Shown here piece by piece: positions 7,040 to 49,220 of a DNA stretch of 64,000 bases. This DNA is from an uncultured bacterium (GTDB taxonomy: Bacteria > Pseudomonadota > Gammaproteobacteria > Burkholderiales > Burkholderiaceae_C): positions 17,210 to 81,209 of the forward strand of contig CAIYQZ010000059.1 of NCBI GenBank assembly GCA_903928495.1, read 5' to 3'. Positions within the stretch are counted from its first letter, which is position 1. Each line of letters opens with the position of its first letter. Both the position numbers and the translations under genes were made by a program. The notes beneath the pieces were generated by a model. It was not told the DNA's origin. It made no database searches and was given only the letters and a program-made list of their open reading frames with translations.

Positions 7040-10030
7040 TCAGAATGGAGTGGGTACTAAGTGATCAATCAGTTGCGCTAACTGCTCGTGGTTGATTTTG
7101 GTCTCGTACTTCACTGGAACGCCTTGTGCCTGCAATGCGGCAAAAAACCGCCGTGCGCTTTGAATCTTCCACCGCTCGCGTTCGGGCACCTCTGCCTCGT
7201 TGTCGTAGCCTTTGGTCTCCACTACTAGGTAAAGCGCCTCGGTGGCACCAGCGCGGCGTATGACATAGCCAAAATCTGGGTTGTACTTGCCAGCCGGTGT
7301 GGGAATGTTGATTTTGGGCAGCTTGGCAAACACCGTAATGCAGTCGTGCTGGGATTCGTCCACGGTGTCGCGCTCAATTTGGCTGTCCACCGGCATCACG
7401 TTTTCAACGTACAGCGATTTGGCTCGCACCACCGCATTGCCTATCGTGTGCGCTTCTTTGCCGCACAAAGCCAGTGGGATGGTTTTCAGCAAGGTGCCGG
7501 TGTTGTCGGTCAACGCCGTTGTCGCCCGGATCTCCCGCAACTCGTAACTCACCCTGTTCACCAGCAATTCGTGCACGCTGCGCAAGATCAGGTCACGCAG
7601 TGTGAGCAACGCCCGGTTCTCGTTGTGCTGAATTTGCGCAAATTTATCGGTGGGCATTCGGGCCAATACGCCGCTGATGGTGTGAATGCTCAGCCGCGTT
7701 TGGTTGGCCAATTCCCGCACAAACCCTTGCAAACTCAACACCGCATGGGGCTTGACCGTGTAGCTGTTTTGCGTGCTTTTGACTTCATGAACGCTTTGCA
7801 CATCGCTGGTGCGCGTGATGCGAACAGACAGCGGGCGGACATCAAAACTTTGCGCAATTCGGTTCAGCACGCTTCGCATGAGCCCTTCCGTATCCAGCTC
7901 GTAACGCAGCACCGCATGGCGGTTCAGGTTTTCCCAAAGGTGGCGAAACTGCTGGTAACTGACCAAGTTGGGTGTGAGGTTGGCTTGGGTTTTGTGCTGC
8001 TTATTCTTGACTTGTCCTGCGCTGTCGTAGTAAGCGTCCAGATACGCCTGCATGTTGGCAGCGTTGTGCGGCTCAATGCCCGGTATGCGCAACATGTTGG
8101 CCAAAATGCTTGCCCGCTTGGCATGGTAGGTGTCCCGGCTCATCACAAGCGTGGCTTGTCCGGTCAAGTCATCCAGCTCCACCACATCCAATGCGGCTAA
8201 AGCGTCCAACACCCGGTTGGCCAGTCGTGTGCTCAAGGCCACGCCAGCTTCGGCCAACAACTTGTCGTCAAACACCCGCGCCACCCGCTTGACGCTGTGC
8301 TGCGCAATTTCGCCCTGAATGGCAGCCACAAAATCACCCTCGCTGGCGGGCACCACCACGGTCAGGTCATTGATTTCGTCAAACGCTGCATCGTCGGCCT
8401 GCACCCGCTCCAGTTGCTGGTTCACTGCCAGGCGCAGGCCACGGCCAATTTGTTGCAACTTGCTGATTTTGGAATTGCTGGGGGCCAGTTTACACAGCGT
8501 GAAAACATTGGGGTTGTCCCAGCCTTCTTGCAGTGCCCACATGGAAAAAATGAACCTCAAATCCGTCTCAAACGACAGCAGTTTTTCCTTCTCTTGCAAG
8601 ATCAACTTGATGGCTTCTTCTTCGCCCTTTTCGCTGTGCGAGCGGGCAAAGTAGCCTTTGTGCACCTTGCCAATGTCAGTTTGGGTGCGCTGCAAATATT
8701 CACGGTAACCCTCATCGAGCTCCGGCTTGCCCAGTGTTAGCGCCAGGTGGTGACGGTAATGGCGCTCAAACGCCTCGCGCACCACCGCAGACTGGGTTTT
8801 GCCCCCCGCAGTTGCAGGCAGGTATTTGCCCACCGCATCAATGAAAAACAGCGTCAGCGACTTGATGCCGCGCTTGAACAGCTCTTCCTCACGCTCAAAG
8901 TGGTTGGCCACAGCACGCTCGATGATGAGCGATTGCACCTCATCGGCCAGCATGCCGTAGGCCGTCGGTTCACCCAGGGGCAGTGCAAAACCGTTGGTGA
9001 ACAGCAGCTCTTTGGCAGTGATTTTTTCCACCACATGGCCACTTAAAAAATCAAGCCCGGTTTGCTGACCCAGGTTGTCTTTGGCTTGCAAGCTCACGCT
9101 CGAGGCTTGCCCAGCGAGCGTTTGGTGGCCCACACGGGCAGTGCGCTCTTTTGCGCTGCCCGTCACCTCATGCAGGCACAGCACCTGCGCGCTGTCATGC
9201 CCCGTGCCCACGGTGTCCACCGTGATGCCCTTGACCAGCCGCTGGCGAAAAGCCTCCAGGCTGTCCAGCGTGTAAACAAGGTTGCGGTACTCGTCTTTTT
9301 TGAAAGTGGCCCCAAACCGGATGGTCAGCAGCGGGTTGAACTTGGCCAAATACTCCTGTACCACCTTGCCCTCAAAACGGTGCGGCTCATCAATGACGAG
9401 CACGGGCCGAATGTGCGCCAGCGCTTCCATGTAGCTTTTGGCCCGGCCAAACAAGTTGGCCTCGACGCCGCGCTTGTTGATGAGCTTGCTGTCCCCGGCA
9501 AACGACTGGTAGGTGGCCACCATCACCGACAACCCCAGGTTGGCAGCACTGATGAAGCCCTTCACCGTTTTGTCTGAGTAATTGACAACGTTGATTTTCT
9601 GGTTGTTGTACTCGCGGGCAAAAAACGCCGCCGTGGTTTGCAGGCTTTTCAGAGTGCCTTGGCGAATGGCGTTGCTGGGCACCAGCACAATGAATTTGGA
9701 CAACCGGTGCTGCTGGTGCAGCTTGTGAATGGTTTCAATGAAGGTGAAGGTTTTGCCCGTGCCCGTTTCCATCAGCACGTCCACATTCAACGCTGGGGTC
9801 AGGCTGCTGGACACTTGCACTGACCCCGTGGTCACGCCATTGGCCTCACGCACACGTGCAATGTTGGCTTTCAGCGTGGCATGCGCTTCGGCCTGCGAAA
9901 ACGTGGGGTTGGCCTGCACATCGGTGGGCGGAGCAAACCGCACATCCGCAAACACATCGGCGATCGAGCGCACCGCTTGCGCTTGGTGCGCCAGGCGGGT
10001 GTATTGGAATTGGGGCAATGCCATGGTCAC
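7040..10030 (-). CDS. res: Type III restriction enzyme, Res subunit
   Basis: 996 aa. SF2 helicase motif I METGTGKTF, motif II VIDEPHRF, and C-terminal PD-(D/E)xK (NPDFGY...VVETKG). It overlaps the mod stop by 4 nt. Confidence 0.9.
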   Translation of the reverse strand: MTMALPQFQYTRLAHQAQAVRSIADVFADVRFAPPTDVQANPTFSQAEAHATLKANIARVREANGVTTGSVQVSSSLTPALNVDVLMETGTGKTFTFIETIHKLHQQHRLSKFIVLVPSNAIRQGTLKSLQTTAAFFAREYNNQKINVVNYSDKTVKGFISAANLGLSVMVATYQSFAGDSKLINKRGVEANLFGRAKSYMEALAHIRPVLVIDEPHRFEGKVVQEYLAKFNPLLTIRFGATFKKDEYRNLVYTLDSLEAFRQRLVKGITVDTVGTGHDSAQVLCLHEVTGSAKERTARVGHQTLAGQASSVSLQAKDNLGQQTGLDFLSGHVVEKITAKELLFTNGFALPLGEPTAYGMLADEVQSLIIERAVANHFEREEELFKRGIKSLTLFFIDAVGKYLPATAGGKTQSAVVREAFERHYRHHLALTLGKPELDEGYREYLQRTQTDIGKVHKGYFARSHSEKGEEEAIKLILQEKEKLLSFETDLRFIFSMWALQEGWDNPNVFTLCKLAPSNSKISKLQQIGRGLRLAVNQQLERVQADDAAFDEINDLTVVVPASEGDFVAAIQGEIAQHSVKRVARVFDDKLLAEAGVALSTRLANRVLDALAALDVVELDDLTGQATLVMSRDTYHAKRASILANMLRIPGIEPHNAANMQAYLDAYYDSAGQVKNKQHKTQANLTPNLVSYQQFRHLWENLNRHAVLRYELDTEGLMRSVLNRIAQSFDVRPLSVRITRTSDVQSVHEVKSTQNSYTVKPHAVLSLQGFVRELANQTRLSIHTISGVLARMPTDKFAQIQHNENRALLTLRDLILRSVHELLVNRVSYELREIRATTALTDNTGTLLKTIPLALCGKEAHTIGNAVVRAKSLYVENVMPVDSQIERDTVDESQHDCITVFAKLPKINIPTPAGKYNPDFGYVIRRAGATEALYLVVETKGYDNEAEVPERERWKIQSARRFFAALQAQGVPVKYETKINHEQLAQLIDHLVPTPF

Positions 10031-37014: not shown

Positions 37015-38688
37015 TCACCAGCCGGCAGCCAAGCCATCGCGGCGCGGATCGCTGGCGGCCATGTAGCCCTCGGTGCCGGGGTCACCCAGGCGCCAAATGA
37101 ACTGGCCTGCACCAAAGTCCTGGTAGCTGTCCTGGATGACGTCCACCCGGTGGCCCAGGGCCTGCAGCCCAGCCACGGTGTCGGGGTTCATGCCCGATTC
37201 GACGTTGATGGACAGGCCCGTGTTGAACCGCCAGCGCGGTGCGTCGCACGCGGCTTGCAGGCTTTGGCCGTGGTCGAGCAGGCGCACCAGGGTTTGCAGG
37301 TGGCCCTGGGGCTGCATGTTGGCACCCATCACACCAAAGGCCATCACCGGGTCCACCCCGCCGTGGTCACCTGGTCGCGTGAGGAAAGCCGGGATGATGG
37401 TGTGAAAGGGCCGCTTGCCCGGCGCCACCACGTTGGCCGGGTTGCCCTGGCCCCCTGCAAAAGCGGCTGGCAGCGCAAAGCCATGCCCCCGGTTTTGCAG
37501 GCTGATGCCAAACGTGGGCTCCACGCAGCCCGAGCCAAAGCCCATGTAGTTGCTTTGAATGAAGCTGACCATCATCCCGCTCTCGTCGGCGGCAGTGAGG
37601 TAAATGGTGCCGCCCCGGCGGTGTGGGTCGTTCGGCGTGCCGGCCTGCGGGGCTTGCGCGCGGCGGGGGTCGATCAGTTTGGCGCGCTCGGCCAGGTAGG
37701 TGGGGCTGAGCAGTTCCTCCACCAACACCTGCATGGCGGCGGGCTCGGCCACGAAGCGATAGGCATCAGCAAAGGCGAGTTTCATGGCCTCGATTTGCAG
37801 ATGTTGCGCCGCCACGCTGTCCACCGGCAGGGCCGCCACGTCGAAGTGCTGAAGGATGCCGAGCGCCATCAGCGCCGCAATGCCCTGGCCGCTGGGCGGA
37901 ATTTCGTGCAGGGTGTGACCACGGTAGGTTTGACCGATGGGCTGCACCCACTCGGGGGCGTGGGAGGCCCAGTCGGCCTGCGTGAGTGCGCCGCCGTGCT
38001 GAGCGGCAAACCGGGCCAGCGCCTGGGCGATTTCGCCTTGGTAAAACGCTTCGCCTTTGGTAGCTGCAATGGCTTTCAGGGCCAGCGCTGCTGCCTTGAA
38101 TGACCACAACTCTCCAACAAGCGGCGCACGGCCTTTGGGTAAAAACGCCTGGGCAAAACCGGGCTGGCTGCCCAGTTCGCTCACCACCGCCGCCCACTTG
38201 CCCTGCACCACGGGGGGCACGGCGTAGCCGCGCTCGGCCACTTCAATGGCGGGTTGCATCAGGTCACCAAACGGCAGTTTGCCAAATCGCTCGCTCAACG
38301 CCACCCAGCCGCTGACCGCTCCAGGCACGGTCACGCTGTCGATGCCGCGTTTGGGTGGAGCGGTGGCACTGTCGCCATACTTGGCGGTGAAGTAATCGGG
38401 CGTCCAGGCCTGCGGGGCACGGCCCGAGGCGTTCAACCCATGCAACTCGCCACCGGCCCACACCAGCGCAAAGGCATCGCTGCCCAAGCCATTGCTGACG
38501 GGCTCCACCACGGTCATGACTGCGGCGGCTGCCACGCCAGCATCGACTGCATTGCCCCCGCTGCGCAGCATGTGCAAGCCCGCTTGCGCGGCCAGCGGGT
38601 GCGAGGTAGACACCACGTTGCGCGCGAACACCGGCAGGCGCACGCTGCGGTAGGGGTTGGGGGTTTGGGCAGCAGAGGCGAGGTGCAT
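37015..38688 (-). CDS. ggt: gamma-glutamyltransferase family protein
   Basis: SHPLAAQAG...GGNAVDA, and the autoprocessing threonine context GGTIYLTAAD (aligned to the family motif from memory). ATG at 38688. No signal peptide is visible. Confidence 0.88.
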   Translation of the reverse strand: MHLASAAQTPNPYRSVRLPVFARNVVSTSHPLAAQAGLHMLRSGGNAVDAGVAAAAVMTVVEPVSNGLGSDAFALVWAGGELHGLNASGRAPQAWTPDYFTAKYGDSATAPPKRGIDSVTVPGAVSGWVALSERFGKLPFGDLMQPAIEVAERGYAVPPVVQGKWAAVVSELGSQPGFAQAFLPKGRAPLVGELWSFKAAALALKAIAATKGEAFYQGEIAQALARFAAQHGGALTQADWASHAPEWVQPIGQTYRGHTLHEIPPSGQGIAALMALGILQHFDVAALPVDSVAAQHLQIEAMKLAFADAYRFVAEPAAMQVLVEELLSPTYLAERAKLIDPRRAQAPQAGTPNDPHRRGGTIYLTAADESGMMVSFIQSNYMGFGSGCVEPTFGISLQNRGHGFALPAAFAGGQGNPANVVAPGKRPFHTIIPAFLTRPGDHGGVDPVMAFGVMGANMQPQGHLQTLVRLLDHGQSLQAACDAPRWRFNTGLSINVESGMNPDTVAGLQALGHRVDVIQDSYQDFGAGQFIWRLGDPGTEGYMAASDPRRDGLAAGW

Positions 38689-38740
38689 GGTCAGCTCCAG
38701 AATGGGGACACGGATTGTGGCGGTGGGCAGTGCGCCAACG

Positions 38741-38765
38741 AAAAACGGCACCCGTCGGGGTGCCG
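38741..38765 (-). terminator. rho-independent terminator after tctA
   Basis: On the minus strand, GGCACCC-cgac-GGGTGCC is followed by TTTTT, about 40 nt after the tctA stop. Confidence 0.65.
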
Positions 38766-38805
38766 CTTGCGTGACAGGCCCCACCACTCGGGTGGAGCCT
38801 GTGCG

Positions 38806-40317
38806 TCAGTCTTCCACAAACGCTTCTTCGCGCTTTTTCTTGATGGAAGGCAACATCACGATCACCAGCAGCAACAGGGCAAACGCCAGCAGCGTGGCCG
38901 ACAGGGGGCGTGTGACAAACACGCTCCAGTCGCCCCGCGACAACAGCAGCGCACGGCGCAGGTTTTCTTCCATCATGGGGCCCAGAATGAACCCCAGCAG
39001 CAGCGGCGCGGGTTCCAGCCCCAGCTTGATGAAGGTGTAGCCCACAGCACCAAAGCCTGCCACCATCCACACGTCAAACGTGTTGTTGTTGGTGGAGTAA
39101 ACACCAATCGCACAGAACAGCACGATGGCCGGGAACAGCCAGCGATAGGGCACGGTCAGCAGCTTGATCCAGATGCCGATGAGCGGCAGGTTCAGGATGA
39201 TCAGCATCAGGTTGCCGATCCACATGGAGGCAATCAGCCCCCAGAACAGCTCGGGATTGCTGGTCATCACCTGGGGGCCAGGCTGGATGTTGTGGATGGT
39301 CATGGCACCCACCATCAGCGCCATCACGGCGTTGGGCGGGATGCCCAGCGTCAGCAGCGGAATGAACGATGTTTGCGAACCTGCGTTGTTGGCAGCTTCA
39401 GGAGCAGCCACGCCACGGATGTTGCCCTGGCCGAACGGCACTTCACCGGGCTTGAGCTTCGTCTTTTTCTCTATGGTGTAGGCAGCAAAGGCCGACAACA
39501 GCGCACCGCCGCCGGGCAGGATGCCCAAGGCAGAACCCAACGCAGTGCCGCGCAGCACGGCGGGCACCATGTTCTTGAAGTCTTCCTTGGTGGGCATGAG
39601 GCCCTGCACGTTGCCCGTGAACACTTCGCGCTTCTCTTCACCTTGTGCCAGGTTGCTGATGATCTCGCCGTAGCCGAACACACCCATGGCGATCACCACG
39701 AAGCTGATGCCGTCGGACAGTTCAGGGATGTCGAATGTGAAACGTGGCACACCGGAGTTCACGTCGGTACCCACCATGCCCAGCAACAGACCCAGCACGA
39801 TCATGCCCAGAGCCTTGAGCAGCGAACCCGAAGCCAGCACCACCGCACCAATGAGGCCCAAAATCATCAGCGAGAAGTACTCGGCCGGGCCAAACTTGAA
39901 CGCCACCTCGGTCAGCGGTGCAGCGAAGGCCGCCAGAATCAGCGTGCCCACGCAACCGGCAAAGAACGAACCCATGCCAGCAGCCGCCAACGCTGGGCCT
40001 GCACGGCCTTTGCGGGCCATCTGGTAACCGTCGATCACGGTCACCACGGACGACGATTCACCCGGCAGGTTCACCAGAATGGCGGTGGTGGAGCCGCCGT
40101 ATTGCGCCCCGTAGTAAATGCCAGCCAGCATGATCAGCGCGGCCACGGGGGGCAGCGCGTAGGTGGCGGGCAGCAGCATGGCAATGGTGGCTACGGGGCC
40201 AATGCCCGGCAACACACCAATCAGCGTGCCCAGCAAACAGCCAATGAAGGCGTACATGAGGTTTTGGGCCGTGAAGGCCACGCCAAAACCCAACGCAAGG
40301 TTGTCAAACAGTTCCAT
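38806..40317 (-). CDS. tctA: tripartite tricarboxylate transporter, large permease
   Basis: MELFDNLALGF...GVLPGIGP...YGGSTTAILVN are canonical TctA motifs. 503 aa. Confidence 0.93.
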   Translation of the reverse strand: MELFDNLALGFGVAFTAQNLMYAFIGCLLGTLIGVLPGIGPVATIAMLLPATYALPPVAALIMLAGIYYGAQYGGSTTAILVNLPGESSSVVTVIDGYQMARKGRAGPALAAAGMGSFFAGCVGTLILAAFAAPLTEVAFKFGPAEYFSLMILGLIGAVVLASGSLLKALGMIVLGLLLGMVGTDVNSGVPRFTFDIPELSDGISFVVIAMGVFGYGEIISNLAQGEEKREVFTGNVQGLMPTKEDFKNMVPAVLRGTALGSALGILPGGGALLSAFAAYTIEKKTKLKPGEVPFGQGNIRGVAAPEAANNAGSQTSFIPLLTLGIPPNAVMALMVGAMTIHNIQPGPQVMTSNPELFWGLIASMWIGNLMLIILNLPLIGIWIKLLTVPYRWLFPAIVLFCAIGVYSTNNNTFDVWMVAGFGAVGYTFIKLGLEPAPLLLGFILGPMMEENLRRALLLSRGDWSVFVTRPLSATLLAFALLLLVIVMLPSIKKKREEAFVED

Positions 40318-40329
40318 GGTGAGCTTTCT

Positions 40330-40818
40330 TTAACCGGTGATGAAGGAGGGCCACACCGGGAACTGCAGTGCCAGCAGTTTGACGAAGGCCAGGTAACTGC
40401 CCACAGACAGGATGGTCGCCAGCACCAGCACCTCTTTCAGATTGAATGTTTCGGCTGCAAGGCTGGCAATCAAGGTCAGAGCAAAAATGCCGACCACCAG
40501 ACCGAAACCCGGCAAGCCGATGGCAGGCACACCCACCAGAAGCGCGCCGAATGTGATGTTGGCACCCAGCACGTACGCCAGTGGCTTGAAAGCCCATTTG
40601 CCAATGGGGTCTCCATCAGGGTGCCCCTTGATGAGAGATTGCAGAATCACCACCGCCCCCATCAGAGCCAGAATGATGCCCAGCATCAGCGGGAAATAGC
40701 CGGGCCCCATGCGGGCGGCATCGCCCACCTGGTAAGTGCTTGCGCCGTACGCAAACGCCCCACCCACAACGGTGAACAGCAGTCCACCAAAAAAGTCTTT
40801 CTGATTTTTCACCAGCAC
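40330..40818 (-). CDS. tctB: tripartite tricarboxylate transporter, small permease
   Basis: Four-TM 162-aa protein directly upstream of tctA. The GTG start is preceded by AGGAGA. Confidence 0.8.
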   Translation of the reverse strand: MLVKNQKDFFGGLLFTVVGGAFAYGASTYQVGDAARMGPGYFPLMLGIILALMGAVVILQSLIKGHPDGDPIGKWAFKPLAYVLGANITFGALLVGVPAIGLPGFGLVVGIFALTLIASLAAETFNLKEVLVLATILSVGSYLAFVKLLALQFPVWPSFITG

Positions 40819-40919
40819 AGGAAATCTCCTCGAACGTTGGAACGACGAGATTCTGCGCCCGGGTTCCCATGCCCCGGGTGTGGATTACACATACCGGCAG
40901 CCTAGGGTTTACCCTTGAA

Positions 40920-44966: not shown

Positions 44967-45215
44967 TCAGGCAGACAAAACAACCCGCTGGGTCAGGTCG
45001 GGCGTGCCAGCCAGCAGCCCAGCCACTGAAAGGTCTTCGTCCAGTACATCCCAATGCAAGCCACTGCGGCTCAATTCAACTTGAGCCAGTTGCTCGGGGC
45101 TGGCATGCAACAGACGGGGGAACCAAGCCAACGGGACAGAAATTTTTCGTCCATCTGACAGGGTGACGGTCATGCTGTCTTCGTCGAACGAGACATTTTC
45201 AGGCGAAATACTCAT
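44967..45215 (-). CDS. DUF2442 family protein (putative antitoxin-like partner)
   Basis: MSISPENVSFDEDSMTVTLSDGRKISVPLAWFPRL is typical of DUF2442. AAGGAG lies 5 nt upstream of the ATG at 45215. Confidence 0.7.
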   Translation of the reverse strand: MSISPENVSFDEDSMTVTLSDGRKISVPLAWFPRLLHASPEQLAQVELSRSGLHWDVLDEDLSVAGLLAGTPDLTQRVVLSA

Positions 45216-45441
45216 TCCAGCTCCTTTCAATCAACGCTCGGTGCGTCTCAACCGCATTTTGCAGCTCACGCAAGGTTCGCGCATCCAGACCGCTGCTGCC
45301 GGCCAGGCTGATGGACGGGGCCATCCAAAACTTGGCCTCGCCCTGTGGGCTACGCACATGAATATGCATGGCTTCACGAGGGTTGCCCTCGTTGGAATAG
45401 AAGAAAAACCGGAAGTTTTTGTATCGGAACACAACGGGCAT
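45199..45441 (-). CDS. DUF4160 family protein (putative toxin-like partner)
   Basis: FRFFFYSNEGNPREAMHIHVRSPQGEAKFW is the DUF4160 signature. 80 aa. Confidence 0.75.
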   Translation of the reverse strand: MPVVFRYKNFRFFFYSNEGNPREAMHIHVRSPQGEAKFWMAPSISLAGSSGLDARTLRELQNAVETHRALIERSWNEYFA

Positions 45442-45444
45442 GCG

Positions 45445-46314
45445 TCAGCCTCCTCTTGCAATCGGGTAGATGTCCTGGACAGCGGCCCAATGTTCACGGA
45501 GTAAGCAGCCAAACTCCGCATGTGCATTGACGGCTGCTGCGTGGCTTGGTACCAAAGCATTCAACACAGTGGACAGGCGCAACGGTGGTTCGTCGTGCAT
45601 ATGCACGGTCCACTTTCCGTTCCCTCTGACCAAGTGCGCTTGGCTCCACACCCCTTGTTCAAGGTACGGAGGGATTCGGTGCATGAACCGATCTCTGTAT
45701 GAAAACACCGGGTCCAAGTCTCGGTTTTGGGGATAGATGGTTTCAATGGCTGCTCTCAATCGGGGGGTCGCCTCCCAACGCTCGACCGCGCTCCACATTT
45801 CATTCCATTTGGGCGCCTGATGGCTGTCTCTGGAACGTGATGAGAGCTCCGACCCGGGCGGTGACAACAACACATCCATCTCGTGGTGGGTTCTCCAAAC
45901 GGCAAATGCGAAGCGGCTTTTCAGCGCCATGGGCAGATTCAATGCATGGTGTGCCAATGGCAACACCACTTCCGCCAAAAGAGCCAACCGCGCTTCTGCA
46001 CTTTCGGCACCGTCCAAAGATGCCTGCCACGCCTTCAATCTGTCCAGGCAATAACCGAAGTCATTGACCTCGTTGGTCAACCGGTACCAGTGGGTCTCTG
46101 ACGTTTCCCCCCACGCATCGGCCATCGTGTCCATGGTCAGGTGACGTGAGACCGGTGCGTGAAAGGGCACTTGTGGACGCCTGACCTCTGCGGGTAGTTG
46201 ATGCAGCGCGCTGCGATACCGCGCCTGCCCAGCGCCAAGCGATGCATCCCATTTGGGGTCTGCGGGGTCAACTTCACCAAGCAAATGCTTTGCTTGTTCA
46301 GTCTCGGAGCTCAT
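45445..46314 (-). CDS. hypothetical protein (289 aa) with R-x4-H motif
   Basis: The ATG overlaps the stop of the MmeI-like gene (ATGA at 46311-46314). The region is AT-richer than its neighbours. RDRFMH lies at aa 207-212 (nt 45679-45696). No family recognised. Confidence 0.7.
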   Translation of the reverse strand: MSSETEQAKHLLGEVDPADPKWDASLGAGQARYRSALHQLPAEVRRPQVPFHAPVSRHLTMDTMADAWGETSETHWYRLTNEVNDFGYCLDRLKAWQASLDGAESAEARLALLAEVVLPLAHHALNLPMALKSRFAFAVWRTHHEMDVLLSPPGSELSSRSRDSHQAPKWNEMWSAVERWEATPRLRAAIETIYPQNRDLDPVFSYRDRFMHRIPPYLEQGVWSQAHLVRGNGKWTVHMHDEPPLRLSTVLNALVPSHAAAVNAHAEFGCLLREHWAAVQDIYPIARGG

Positions 46315-49175
46315 GGTGCAGGTGCTGCATTGAGGGTTTTCTTAACCTTACCTGCCTTCCCCACCGCCAGCAAACTGTTCAGCCGCTGGTACAGCTCAAA
46401 CAAAAACGCCACGCGCTCGGCGTCGTTTTTGTAGGCCTTTTTTCCGCCGCAGGCTTCGTAGGCTTTGTCCACGGCGGTGTCGAGTTTTTGGTGGGCTTTG
46501 AGCAGCGCCGGGGGCATGGTGAGCGGGTCGTACAGGTCGGCCAGGCTGCTGGTGGGGAACTGGGCGCGGGCGTCGAGCACGGCTTGGGCGGCGGTTTCTA
46601 TAGCCACTTGCGCTTTTCCATCAAGCGCTGGAGGCACTTTTGACACTGAATTTTCTGTTGGGTTGCAGAAGGGCCAGGGGAAGTTGTTGTAGACGATGGC
46701 GGCGGAGTAGCGGTAATCGCTTTTCAGCCGCCCGCAGGTGGTGCGCACCCAAGCGTTGTGCATGGTGCTAGAAAGGACGCCGAAGTGGAACAGGGTGGCG
46801 TCGGGCAGCACGTAAAGCTGATTTGACGCAATAACTTCTGGGGGCAAAAAGCCTATTGGGATGAAGTTACGACGCTCAGAGCTCACCGTGGGAATGGCGA
46901 GGTAATGGGTACTGGGTTGTCGAATTTCTGCAAACAATGTAGGGGTGTTAGCCAGCTTCTTGGTGGTTTCGCGGTCGCGGGATGCCCGCCACTTTCGAAC
47001 CGCTTCAATCCGTGATAACGCCACTGGCGACTGTCTCAGGCTGGTTGGTGATGCATCTCGAAACCAAAGGCACCAGCGCGGCGTGCTGTGCAACAGTTCT
47101 TCACCTCCCATGAATGGCCGAACAAATTCGGCTATCCGTGAATCTTTGGATTCCAGAGAGTCCTTTGTGCTCTTATCCAACGTGTAGTGGCCATCGTCGA
47201 GCGCGAAACTGCCGTACACCAGCCCCGGGACACCGTTGGTGGGCCTTTTTACAGAGGCAAGTAGCACATCGGGTGCATCCACCAAATAGGGGTTGATGCG
47301 CTGCGCAGGCACGGCGTGGGGCTGGCCCTTGATGTCGTCGTACTCGTGAATGATCTTGCCCGCCCGGTCGTTCAGCCCGAAGCCGACGATGACGCAGTGC
47401 ACGGCGGCTTTGCCCTTAGCTTCGTTGCTCCAGTTGAAGGTGCGGTGGGCAAAGTGAATTTTCACGCCCTGTGCCAGCAGCCAGCTCCACAACACGCCCA
47501 CCTGTTCACCTTGCGTGATGCTGTTGGTGGACACAAACGCGCACTCTGGCAGCACCGCACCTGCCGTACCTGATTCTTGGGCGAGCGCCATGTAGCGCGC
47601 GGCTTTGACGTACCACGCCGACACAAAGTCGAGCACACCAGCGCCCTGGATGTGGCCCATCACCTGCTCAAAGTCGGCTTTTTGTGCGGGGGACTGTTCT
47701 CTTTTGCCCAAAAACGGCGGGTTGCCCAGGACAAAACTGCACCGTTCCGGGGCCAGCATGTCGGCCCAGTCCAGCGTGAGGGCGTTTCCGTGCGCAATGT
47801 GGGGGCTGGTGCGCAAGGGGATGCGTGCGAAATACAGGCCAAACTCTTCGCTGACCTGCAGGTTCATTTGGTGGTCCATCAACCACAGGGCCACTTGGGC
47901 AATTTGGGCTGGGAATTCTTCAATTTCTATGCCGAAAAACTGGTCCACGTTCACGCCAATCAGGCTGTGCACGTCCACGCTGCGTTGGCCGGCGTTGCCG
48001 CTGAGTTCGTGGCTGGCGCGCAGCACGGCCAGTTCCAGCAGGCGAAGTTCCCGGTAGGCAATGACCAGAAAGTTGCCACAGCCGCAGGCGGGGTCAAAAA
48101 ACGTGAGGTGGCGCAGCTTTTGGTGAAACTCAAACAGGCGGTTGCGGTTGCCTTTGACCTTGCCAAACTCGGCCCACAGCGCGTCCAGAAACAGGGGCTT
48201 GATGAGTTTTTGGATGTTTTCTTCGCTGGTGTAGTGCGCGCCCAGGTTGCGGCGGGCCTCGGCGTTCATGATGCTTTGGAACAGGCTGCCAAAGATGGCG
48301 GGGCTGATGGCCGACCAGTCCAGCGCGCAGGCATCGAGCAGGGCCTCGCGCATGGGGGCATTGAAGTCGGCCAGGGGCAGGCTTTCTTCAAACAGCTTGC
48401 CGTTGATGTAGGGGAAGCTGGCCAGTTGCGCGTCCAGGTGGGTGCTGCGCTTGGGCTCTGCGGTGTTGAGCACCTGAAACAGTTGGGCCAGGCGGGCACC
48501 CAGGTCCGAGCCGTCGGGCTCGGTGCGCTCCTCCACAAAGGCGCGAAAGGCCTGTGCGGGCTGAAAAATGCCGGTGTCGTCGGCAAACAGACAAAACAGC
48601 AGGCGCACCAGCAGCACCTCCAGCGGGTGCTCGGTGTAGCCGCTGGCTTTAAGTGCGTCGTGCAGCTTGCCCAAAGCGGCAGCGGCTTTGACGTTGACGG
48701 GGTCTTGGGCGCGAATAACCTGGGCCTTGTAGCCGGCCAGAAAGCCGAACAGGCGCACGTGTTTGTGCAGGTCTTTCAGCGCAAATTCCAGCGTTTCGTC
48801 GGGGCGTTCTGCGGTGGCCAGGCGGTGCACGCGCATGCGGGCAAAGTCGCACACCACAATGAGTTGGGGCAAGTCGCGCTCGGCGAGACCGGGGAAGTAG
48901 CCCAGGGCTTGGTCAAACGCGGCGTCCAGGTTTTTGCCCAGCGACTTTTGCTCGACCAGCAGCATGCCAGGCCAGAACAGATCAACAAAGCCTTGACCGC
49001 CACCGTGTTTTTTGACTGCCAGCTCGAAGGTCGCCACGCGTTTGTCGGTGATGCCGAAGATTTCGAAAAACGCCAGCCAAAAGGGTTTGGCATGGCTGTT
49101 TTCGTCCGTTGCATCGGCCCAGGTGCGACTGAAGCTCAGTGCACGGCCCTTTATCTCGTTCCAGCTCAAAGGCAT
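46311..49175 (-). CDS. MmeI-family Type IIL restriction-modification enzyme (fused endonuclease, methyltransferase and specificity domains)
   Basis: N-terminus MPLSWNEIKGRALSFSRTWADATDENSHAKPFW... closely parallels MmeI. Nuclease motif D65-X9-E75-X-K77 (VDLFWPGMLLVEQK), SAM motif FFDPACGCGNFL, and catalytic GNPPFLG. 954 aa. Confidence 0.9.
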   Translation of the reverse strand: MPLSWNEIKGRALSFSRTWADATDENSHAKPFWLAFFEIFGITDKRVATFELAVKKHGGGQGFVDLFWPGMLLVEQKSLGKNLDAAFDQALGYFPGLAERDLPQLIVVCDFARMRVHRLATAERPDETLEFALKDLHKHVRLFGFLAGYKAQVIRAQDPVNVKAAAALGKLHDALKASGYTEHPLEVLLVRLLFCLFADDTGIFQPAQAFRAFVEERTEPDGSDLGARLAQLFQVLNTAEPKRSTHLDAQLASFPYINGKLFEESLPLADFNAPMREALLDACALDWSAISPAIFGSLFQSIMNAEARRNLGAHYTSEENIQKLIKPLFLDALWAEFGKVKGNRNRLFEFHQKLRHLTFFDPACGCGNFLVIAYRELRLLELAVLRASHELSGNAGQRSVDVHSLIGVNVDQFFGIEIEEFPAQIAQVALWLMDHQMNLQVSEEFGLYFARIPLRTSPHIAHGNALTLDWADMLAPERCSFVLGNPPFLGKREQSPAQKADFEQVMGHIQGAGVLDFVSAWYVKAARYMALAQESGTAGAVLPECAFVSTNSITQGEQVGVLWSWLLAQGVKIHFAHRTFNWSNEAKGKAAVHCVIVGFGLNDRAGKIIHEYDDIKGQPHAVPAQRINPYLVDAPDVLLASVKRPTNGVPGLVYGSFALDDGHYTLDKSTKDSLESKDSRIAEFVRPFMGGEELLHSTPRWCLWFRDASPTSLRQSPVALSRIEAVRKWRASRDRETTKKLANTPTLFAEIRQPSTHYLAIPTVSSERRNFIPIGFLPPEVIASNQLYVLPDATLFHFGVLSSTMHNAWVRTTCGRLKSDYRYSAAIVYNNFPWPFCNPTENSVSKVPPALDGKAQVAIETAAQAVLDARAQFPTSSLADLYDPLTMPPALLKAHQKLDTAVDKAYEACGGKKAYKNDAERVAFLFELYQRLNSLLAVGKAGKVKKTLNAAPAP
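46600..46641 (+). repeat. 42-bp motif copy E (inside the MmeI-like CDS, C-terminal region)
   Basis: ATAGCCacttgcgcttttccATCAAGCGCTGGAGGCacTTTT with inner hairpin GCGCTT/AAGCGC. It encodes SKVPPALDGKAQVAIE. Confidence 0.85.
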
Positions 49176-49192
49176 GGCGCACTCCCTGACTT

Positions 49193-49220
49193 TTTATAGC
49201 TACAAAGTATTGCCAATCAA
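49193..49220 (-). promoter_or_regulatory. candidate sigma70-type promoter for the MmeI-like operon (inside motif copy D)
   Basis: The minus strand reads TTGATT-16 nt-TATAAA, ending 17 nt before the ATG, with AGGGAG in between. Confidence 0.4.

Follow-up and report, generated by a model that had tools for sequence, protein, structure and literature searches.

The 64,000 nucleotide stretch of contig CAIYQZ010000059.1 analysed here (the window) contains a 289 amino acid open reading frame (ORF) whose start codon overlaps the stop codon of a gene for an MmeI-family restriction-methyltransferase. We found that the encoded protein belongs to a previously unclassified family, not represented in Pfam, NCBIfam, PADLOC or PHROGs, which carries a conserved R-[NHD]-x3-H signature and probably represents a new family of HEPN-like RNases with a link to restriction-modification (R-M). 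Taking the computational results together we consider it fairly probable that the ORF encodes a HEPN-like, metal-independent RNase that is co-produced with the MmeI enzyme and serves as a second-line effector blocking translation. HEPN RNases attached to R-M systems are already well known; this family is new.

The ORF and its RDRFMH sequence (residues 207-212) lie where a first-pass annotation, made from the sequence alone, had placed them (Table 1). Four close homologues with 63-88% identity were identified, and the ratio of nonsynonymous to synonymous substitution rates (dN/dS) of the ORF against these four orthologues is 0.13-0.35. The ORF is thus a real gene under purifying selection; an artefactual reading frame on a GC-rich strand is ruled out by the conserved homologues together with the low dN/dS. 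The first-pass annotation had described the gene as an orphan without a recognisable domain. The second part agrees with our results, since the ORF sequence searched directly against Pfam, NCBIfam, PADLOC, PHROGs and the PDB sequences gave no match. The first part does not hold, since besides the four close homologues a large family was retrieved (see below). The gene had also been called visibly more AT-rich than the MmeI gene, which is overstated: its GC content is indeed lower (57.1% versus 59.4%; at third codon positions, GC3, 62% versus 73%), but the difference is modest.

An exhaustive hidden Markov model search with a five-sequence profile against 1.84 billion cluster representatives (clusters at 50% identity) returned 180 representatives at E<=1e-3, 54 of them at E<=1e-10. 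Most are 250-290 amino acids long and align to query residues ~65-282. In an alignment of 139 family sequences (A2) with a mean column identity of only 16%, H212 is the sole invariant residue (139/139), and R207 is kept in 138 of the 139 members. Conservation of both extends to members with 16% identity; these are the two residues on whose conservation the first-pass annotation had made its HEPN proposal depend. Residue 208, an aspartate in the query, is N, H or D in 125 members (N in 90, H in 20, D in 15). The extended pattern [FY]R[NDH]xxxH[RGQ] is found in 146 of 153 retrieved proteins and is also the family consensus. R-[NHD]-x3-H is therefore the conserved signature of the whole family, and both motif features that define HEPN RNases, a family-wide R-x4-6-H and an N, D or H right after the arginine, are present. 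Other strongly conserved residues are E115 (Table 1), N81, N84 and W96 in the first long helix, P128 and R134 in the second long helix, and G221; the polar residues H141, H144, Q145 and N147 are conserved in most members.

In the single ORF sequence the motif is no more frequent than expected by chance, and taken alone it carries no weight as evidence. With 23 arginines and 17 histidines in the protein, 1.3 R-x4-H motifs are expected and two are present; for R-x4-6-H, 4.0 are expected and five are present, and R[NDH]x3H was found in 16% of shuffles of the protein. The first-pass annotation had itself called the motif short and non-specific. Its significance comes from its conservation across the homologues and from that only.

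Family members are found on plasmids of Sphingomonas, Rhizobium, Mesorhizobium, Ensifer and Pseudomonas (pQBR57), in Ralstonia prophage records and on chromosomes, and some adjoin toxin genes. Plasmid, prophage and toxin-gene settings are typical of conflict-system effectors. The RefSeq product name of the plasmid-borne members examined is "hypothetical protein"; a word-indexed profile search with A2 yielded only eight proteins, none with a useful name, and a tblastn search of plasmids with the ORF itself found nothing. Some members are larger: P0121 (719 amino acids) has an additional N-terminal part of 470 amino acids with an R-x4-H of its own (YLRGSVVHQG), and P0119 (412 amino acids) has a histidine-rich C-terminal extension of 200 amino acids. 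The extra regions of these and similar multi-domain members matched no Pfam domain.

The upstream neighbour of the ORF is an intact type IIL/IIG enzyme. The Pfam domains MmeI_N, MmeI_hel, MmeI_Mtase, MmeI_TRD and MmeI_C all score above cut-off (E 1e-25 to 7e-88), the PADLOC model REase_MTase_IIG matches over the full length of the protein with 1147 bits, and the nuclease motif D-x9-E-x-K (DLFWPGMLLVEQK), the methyltransferase motif I DPACGCGNF and the NPPF motif are intact. As had been reported in the first-pass annotation, the two genes overlap: the ATG of the ORF and the TGA of the MmeI gene form a four-nucleotide overlap, ATGA, and the ORF lacks a Shine-Dalgarno sequence of its own. This arrangement is conserved in the query clade, where an MmeI gene or its remnant is located directly upstream in eight of nine loci. 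In L001-L003 the ORF is preceded by an MmeI C-terminus (74-83% identity) with the identical overlap and followed by DUF4160 and DUF2442 genes. The overlap is present wherever the junction is intact, down to the ORF protein of L014, which is only 28% identical and likewise follows an MmeI C-terminus. The conserved ATGA coupling supports a functional linkage between the ORF and MmeI, and the ORF protein may be regulated by the MmeI enzyme. Scans of metagenome and viral contigs for further MmeI-linked loci of the clade found nothing, and a literature search for HEPN proteins associated with MmeI or with type IIG enzymes found no such association.

Two observations weigh against the reading of an RNase tied to MmeI. 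The ORF outlives the decay of its MmeI partner in L004 and L013, which speaks against MmeI alone restraining a constitutively toxic RNase, and most distant family members are not located beside R-M genes. Both favour an alternative in which the protein is a HEPN-like RNase that acts as an autonomous, self-regulated toxin or abortive-infection gene and travels with MmeI in one clade, ungated by it. This is the main rival explanation, and we regard it as possible, though rather unlikely. It is also favoured by the dN/dS of 0.18 between the ORFs of L002 and L004 and by the synonymous divergence, the mosaic pattern of which suggests independently recombining genes. Distant members are indeed found alone among housekeeping genes, in plasmid operons of hypothetical genes or, in one case, overlapping with a gene for a RES-domain protein, a partner unrelated to MmeI. 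On the other hand, the retention of the overlap at 28% identity together with the missing Shine-Dalgarno sequence points to co-production with MmeI, as does the MmeI gene or remnant at eight of the nine clade loci.

The loci concerned show some further features. L004 (positions 9745-9990) and L013 (1-200) are independent metagenomic loci, in both of which short N-terminal and C-terminal MmeI remnants precede an intact ORF. The remnant in L004 contains in-frame stops, and the start of the ORF is a methionine codon borrowed from the MmeI C-terminus. Synonymous divergence (dS) was compared between positions 44967-46541 of the window and L001-L003: against L001 the ORF has a dS of 1.8 and its flanks 0.6-1.0, and against L003 the ORF has a dS of 0.26 and the DUF4160/DUF2442 pair 1.2-1.4. 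This mosaic suggests recombination breakpoints at the gene borders. In L005 (36-1394) the relative P0005 is preceded not by MmeI but by an unannotated protein of 452 amino acids, the C-terminus of which (PDIIV...IVECTTK) looks from its sequence like a PD-(D/E)xK nuclease. In L006 (180-1821) the 258 amino acid protein P0009 overlaps by 17 nt with the downstream gene of a 293 amino acid RES-domain protein, the position usual for a RES antitoxin.

A first AlphaFold model, based on the five close sequences, was poor (pLDDT 63); with the 139-sequence alignment the pLDDT rose to 91.6 and the predicted template modelling score was 0.89. The first-pass annotation had expected a mostly helical protein, and this model contains 64% helix (DSSP) and one beta-hairpin. 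A helix (residues 20-38) precedes the core, which consists of a long hairpin of helices 63-101 and 106-150, a mostly irregular insert (151-182), helices 183-193 and 204-212, a beta-hairpin (223-242) and a last long helix (247-282). The R-x4-H is located at the C-terminal end of helix 204-212, before the loop and the beta-hairpin that lead to the last helix. According to the 2013 survey of the superfamily (PMC3710099), a HEPN domain consists of a pair of alpha-hairpins in which a variable insert separates helix 2 from helix 3, and it usually carries a second, acidic active-site residue in helix 2, typically within E-x3-[KR]. Judged on order alone, the elements of the model follow this description, as does the motif, which closes the third core helix, and E115 in helix 106-150 corresponds by sequence to the acidic position in helix 2. 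The predicted structure is thus helical with a HEPN-like order of elements.

Profile similarity was searched for by comparing each of the 139 members with 24,736 Pfam models. HEPN_Cthe2314 (PF18730) was the sole family matched by more than two members (four members, best E 5e-4), and one further member matched HEPN_RiboL-PSP. The family consensus matches HEPN_Cthe2314 with E 0.013 over consensus residues 146-207, which include the motif (185-191). In PADLOC, CARF_HEPN was the sole model matched by more than one member (two members, best E 4.9e-4). The NCBIfam scan gave unrelated matches only, each to one or two members, which corresponds to background level.

Several results of these analyses weigh against HEPN membership. 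Every HEPN match is below the curated cut-off; the consensus reaches 15.9 bits where PF18730 requires 27.1, and the query itself, which also stays below this gathering threshold, has no HEPN match in Pfam at E<=1. Nine consensus-like members scanned for a PF18730 match gave none. A search of the PDB sequences with the family profile found no HEPN protein. Foldseek with the pLDDT 91.6 model found nothing at E<0.4 in the PDB (350,542 chains, many of them HEPN) or in BFVD; the best hits were no better than E 0.4 with a TM score of 0.33, and no HEPN entry was among them. The conserved Glu115 is found in the context E-[FV]-V-x-P and thus outside the usual E-x3-[KR]. The profile search and the combination of AlphaFold and Foldseek that had been proposed in the first-pass annotation therefore yielded a confident model, but neither profiles nor structures showed a significant resemblance to any established HEPN family. 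The only Foldseek match to HepT (6m6w_H, E 2.6) was obtained with the low-confidence first model and is meaningless. The HEPN proposal is supported by the conservation, the order of elements and the recurrence of HEPN among the weak matches, and lacks a profile match above threshold and a Foldseek neighbour. HEPN membership of the family is therefore likely only, and not established at the fold level; the RNase activity of the ORF protein is putative.

The same results would fit a new all-alpha fold unrelated to HEPN, in which the arginine and the histidine form a convergent catalytic dyad or a site that binds a ligand or nucleic acid. We judge this unlikely. It would account for a confident model that has no Foldseek neighbour, for profile matches that all stay below threshold, and for the conservation of N81, N84, R134 and H141/H144/Q145/N147 outside the classic HEPN signature. 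Foldseek is, however, weak on long helical bundles, and the recurrent weak matches are limited to three different HEPN models. In addition, HEPN is defined by just such a combination: an R-[NHD]-x3-H whose histidine is invariant, placed where the third core helix ends, and an acidic residue within helix 2 (PMC3710099).

If the protein is a HEPN-like RNase co-produced with MmeI, its R207-x4-H212 dyad, probably with the help of E115, would form a metal-independent endoribonuclease site in an all-alpha protein that is translated by coupling to the intact restriction-methyltransferase. HEPN RNases cleave independently of metal ions and produce 2′,3′-cyclic phosphate ends, and their active sites normally lie at a dimer interface across which two R-x4-H motifs face one another. 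Defence would then have two layers: the MmeI enzyme would cleave unmodified incoming DNA, and the latent RNase would halt translation if restriction fails or is inhibited, with abortive infection or dormancy as the possible outcome. This two-layer reading is drawn by analogy with PrrC-EcoprrI and with R-M-linked HEPN clades, at least 16 of which are known in addition to the PrrC precedent (PMC3710099). PrrC is an RNase which is held latent by an R-M enzyme and freed when a phage neutralises restriction, and its gene is likewise a HEPN-type RNase gene embedded in an R-M operon, that of the type Ic system EcoprrI (PMC3710099). There are clear differences. EcoprrI is a type I system of three subunits, whereas the ORF is paired with a type IIL/IIG enzyme made of a single chain. 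PrrC carries an ABC-ATPase regulatory domain at its N-terminus, whereas the ORF protein has no ATPase match in Pfam or NCBIfam (E<=1). Unlike in the PrrC model, the ORF persists in two loci from which the R-M gene has been lost. An ATPase-regulated anticodon nuclease of the PrrC/RloC type is ruled out, since the ORF matches no ATPase model.

The reading offers a likely function for a family that spans at least 180 clusters (50% identity) and would place single-chain MmeI-type enzymes among the restriction systems with a putative back-up RNase. If the back-up function is real, the two genes would be a compact model for how restriction failure is sensed. As a concept, HEPN linked to R-M was already established in 2013, and the present step is therefore incremental unless a new fold emerges. 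In that direction, a fold without solved or predicted relatives, with an Arg/His dyad independent of HEPN, might act as a guard that physically monitors single-chain MmeI-type enzymes and fires upon inhibition by a phage. We think this quite improbable; if true, the PrrC principle would apply to type IIL/IIG systems as well, through an unrelated effector.

Among known HEPN families the nearest model is Cthe_2314-like HEPN. Judged by the predicted order of its elements, the ORF protein resembles it in being all-alpha, in an R-[NDH]-x3-H that closes the third core helix and in the insert that follows helix 2; a conserved acidic residue falls within helix 2, and the sub-threshold matches of the four members and of the consensus span the motif region. 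The core of the ORF protein is longer (~220 amino acids versus a model of 174 positions); its helices are very long, and a beta-hairpin separates the motif from the last helix. Cthe_2314 has no conserved gene neighbourhood (PMC3710099), whereas the ORF clade is linked to MmeI. ApeA/BMEI1217, EC042_2821 and pEK499_p136-like proteins are small HEPN proteins inside R-M operons and have been proposed to be second-line suicidal RNases (PMC3710099, Table 1 therein); their Pfam models were matched by none of the 139 members. Unlike other R-M-linked HEPN families the ORF protein has no fused restriction endonuclease, winged helix-turn-helix or Zn-ribbon domain. HepT of the HepT-MntA (HEPN-MNT) system is a stand-alone HEPN RNase toxin with R-x4-H, and the relative P0005 has two nucleotidyltransferase (MNT-like) genes downstream (L005, 2367-3434). 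In contrast to HepT-MntA there is no MNT gene in the window, and the ORF protein is twice the size of HepT.

Downstream of the ORF two small genes encode DUF4160 and DUF2442 proteins (Table 1). The DUF4160 gene starts 3 nt past the stop of the ORF, the 3′ end of which contains a separate ribosome-binding site, AGGAGG, for this gene. For the DUF2442 gene homologues support the ATG at 45215, although the longest ORF reaches a TTG at 45230; with the supported start the two genes overlap by 17 nt, as in L001-L003. Both Pfam matches are above cut-off and the toxin gene comes first, so that the neighbours of the ORF, as distinct from the ORF itself, share the domain pair, the gene order and the short overlap with dhiTA of Dickeya dadantii, a type II toxin-antitoxin (TA) system (PMC8198452). 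The DUF4160 protein of the window is a distant relative: it scores 14 bits with the NCBIfam DhiT equivalog, for which the cut-off is 100 bits. A DUF4160/DUF2442 pair is located 3′ of the ORF in all five close loci; in L004 (10860-11370) it is a second, unrelated pair type, and L002 (1606-1857) contains an additional orphan DUF2442 gene, 77% identical to that of L004. The differing pairs indicate that the island carries variable arrays of dhiTA-like modules. The downstream pair most likely belongs to the same mobile island as an independent module with a stabilising role.

It is very unlikely that the ORF protein is a non-catalytic partner, either an accessory or regulatory subunit of MmeI or an antitoxin or sensor for neighbouring toxins (RES, DUF4160): translational coupling to MmeI, the antitoxin-like, upstream and overlapping position of one distant member before a RES-domain gene, and the constant DUF4160/DUF2442 pair in the close loci, even where the pair type differs, would fit, but MmeI enzymes function as single polypeptides, the family is mostly unlinked to MmeI, and an invariant histidine with a near-invariant arginine at 16% identity indicates chemistry and not scaffolding. 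The DUF4160/DUF2442 pair is moreover a self-sufficient TA pair (PMC8198452).

The four genes from MmeI to DUF2442 (44967-49175) have a GC3 of 57-73% compared to 78-80% in the flanks, and the block therefore looks like an acquired island. It is flanked by GspE-like and spermidine-synthase-like genes with spacers of less than 75 nt. No tRNA gene, flanking repeats or integrase gene were found at the block edges, and a promoter scan at the island found nothing.

Table 1. Features of the ORF and its neighbouring genes (positions in the window).
Feature	Position	Strand	Remarks
289 aa ORF, predicted HEPN-like endoribonuclease	45445..46314	-	ATG start; unannotated family of 250-290 aa proteins
R207-D-R-F-M-H212, putative catalytic R-x4-H	45679..45696	-	most conserved family element; DSSP of model
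Glu115 codon, conserved acidic residue in second long helix (106-150)	45970..45972	-	E in 123/139 members
MmeI-family type IIL/IIG restriction-methyltransferase, intact, 954 aa	46311..49175	-	five Pfam MmeI domains
DUF4160 gene, DhiT-type toxin homologue, 80 aa	45199..45441	-	Pfam PF13711, E 1.3e-17
DUF2442 gene, DhiA-type antitoxin homologue, 82 aa (MSISPE...)	44967..45215	-	Pfam PF10387, E 1.9e-23

Long reading frames of the window that run antisense to the real genes, such as one of 540 amino acids opposite the MmeI gene (47577-49199, plus strand) and one of 883 amino acids (38254-40905), are the stop-poor frames usual in GC-rich DNA and not genes.
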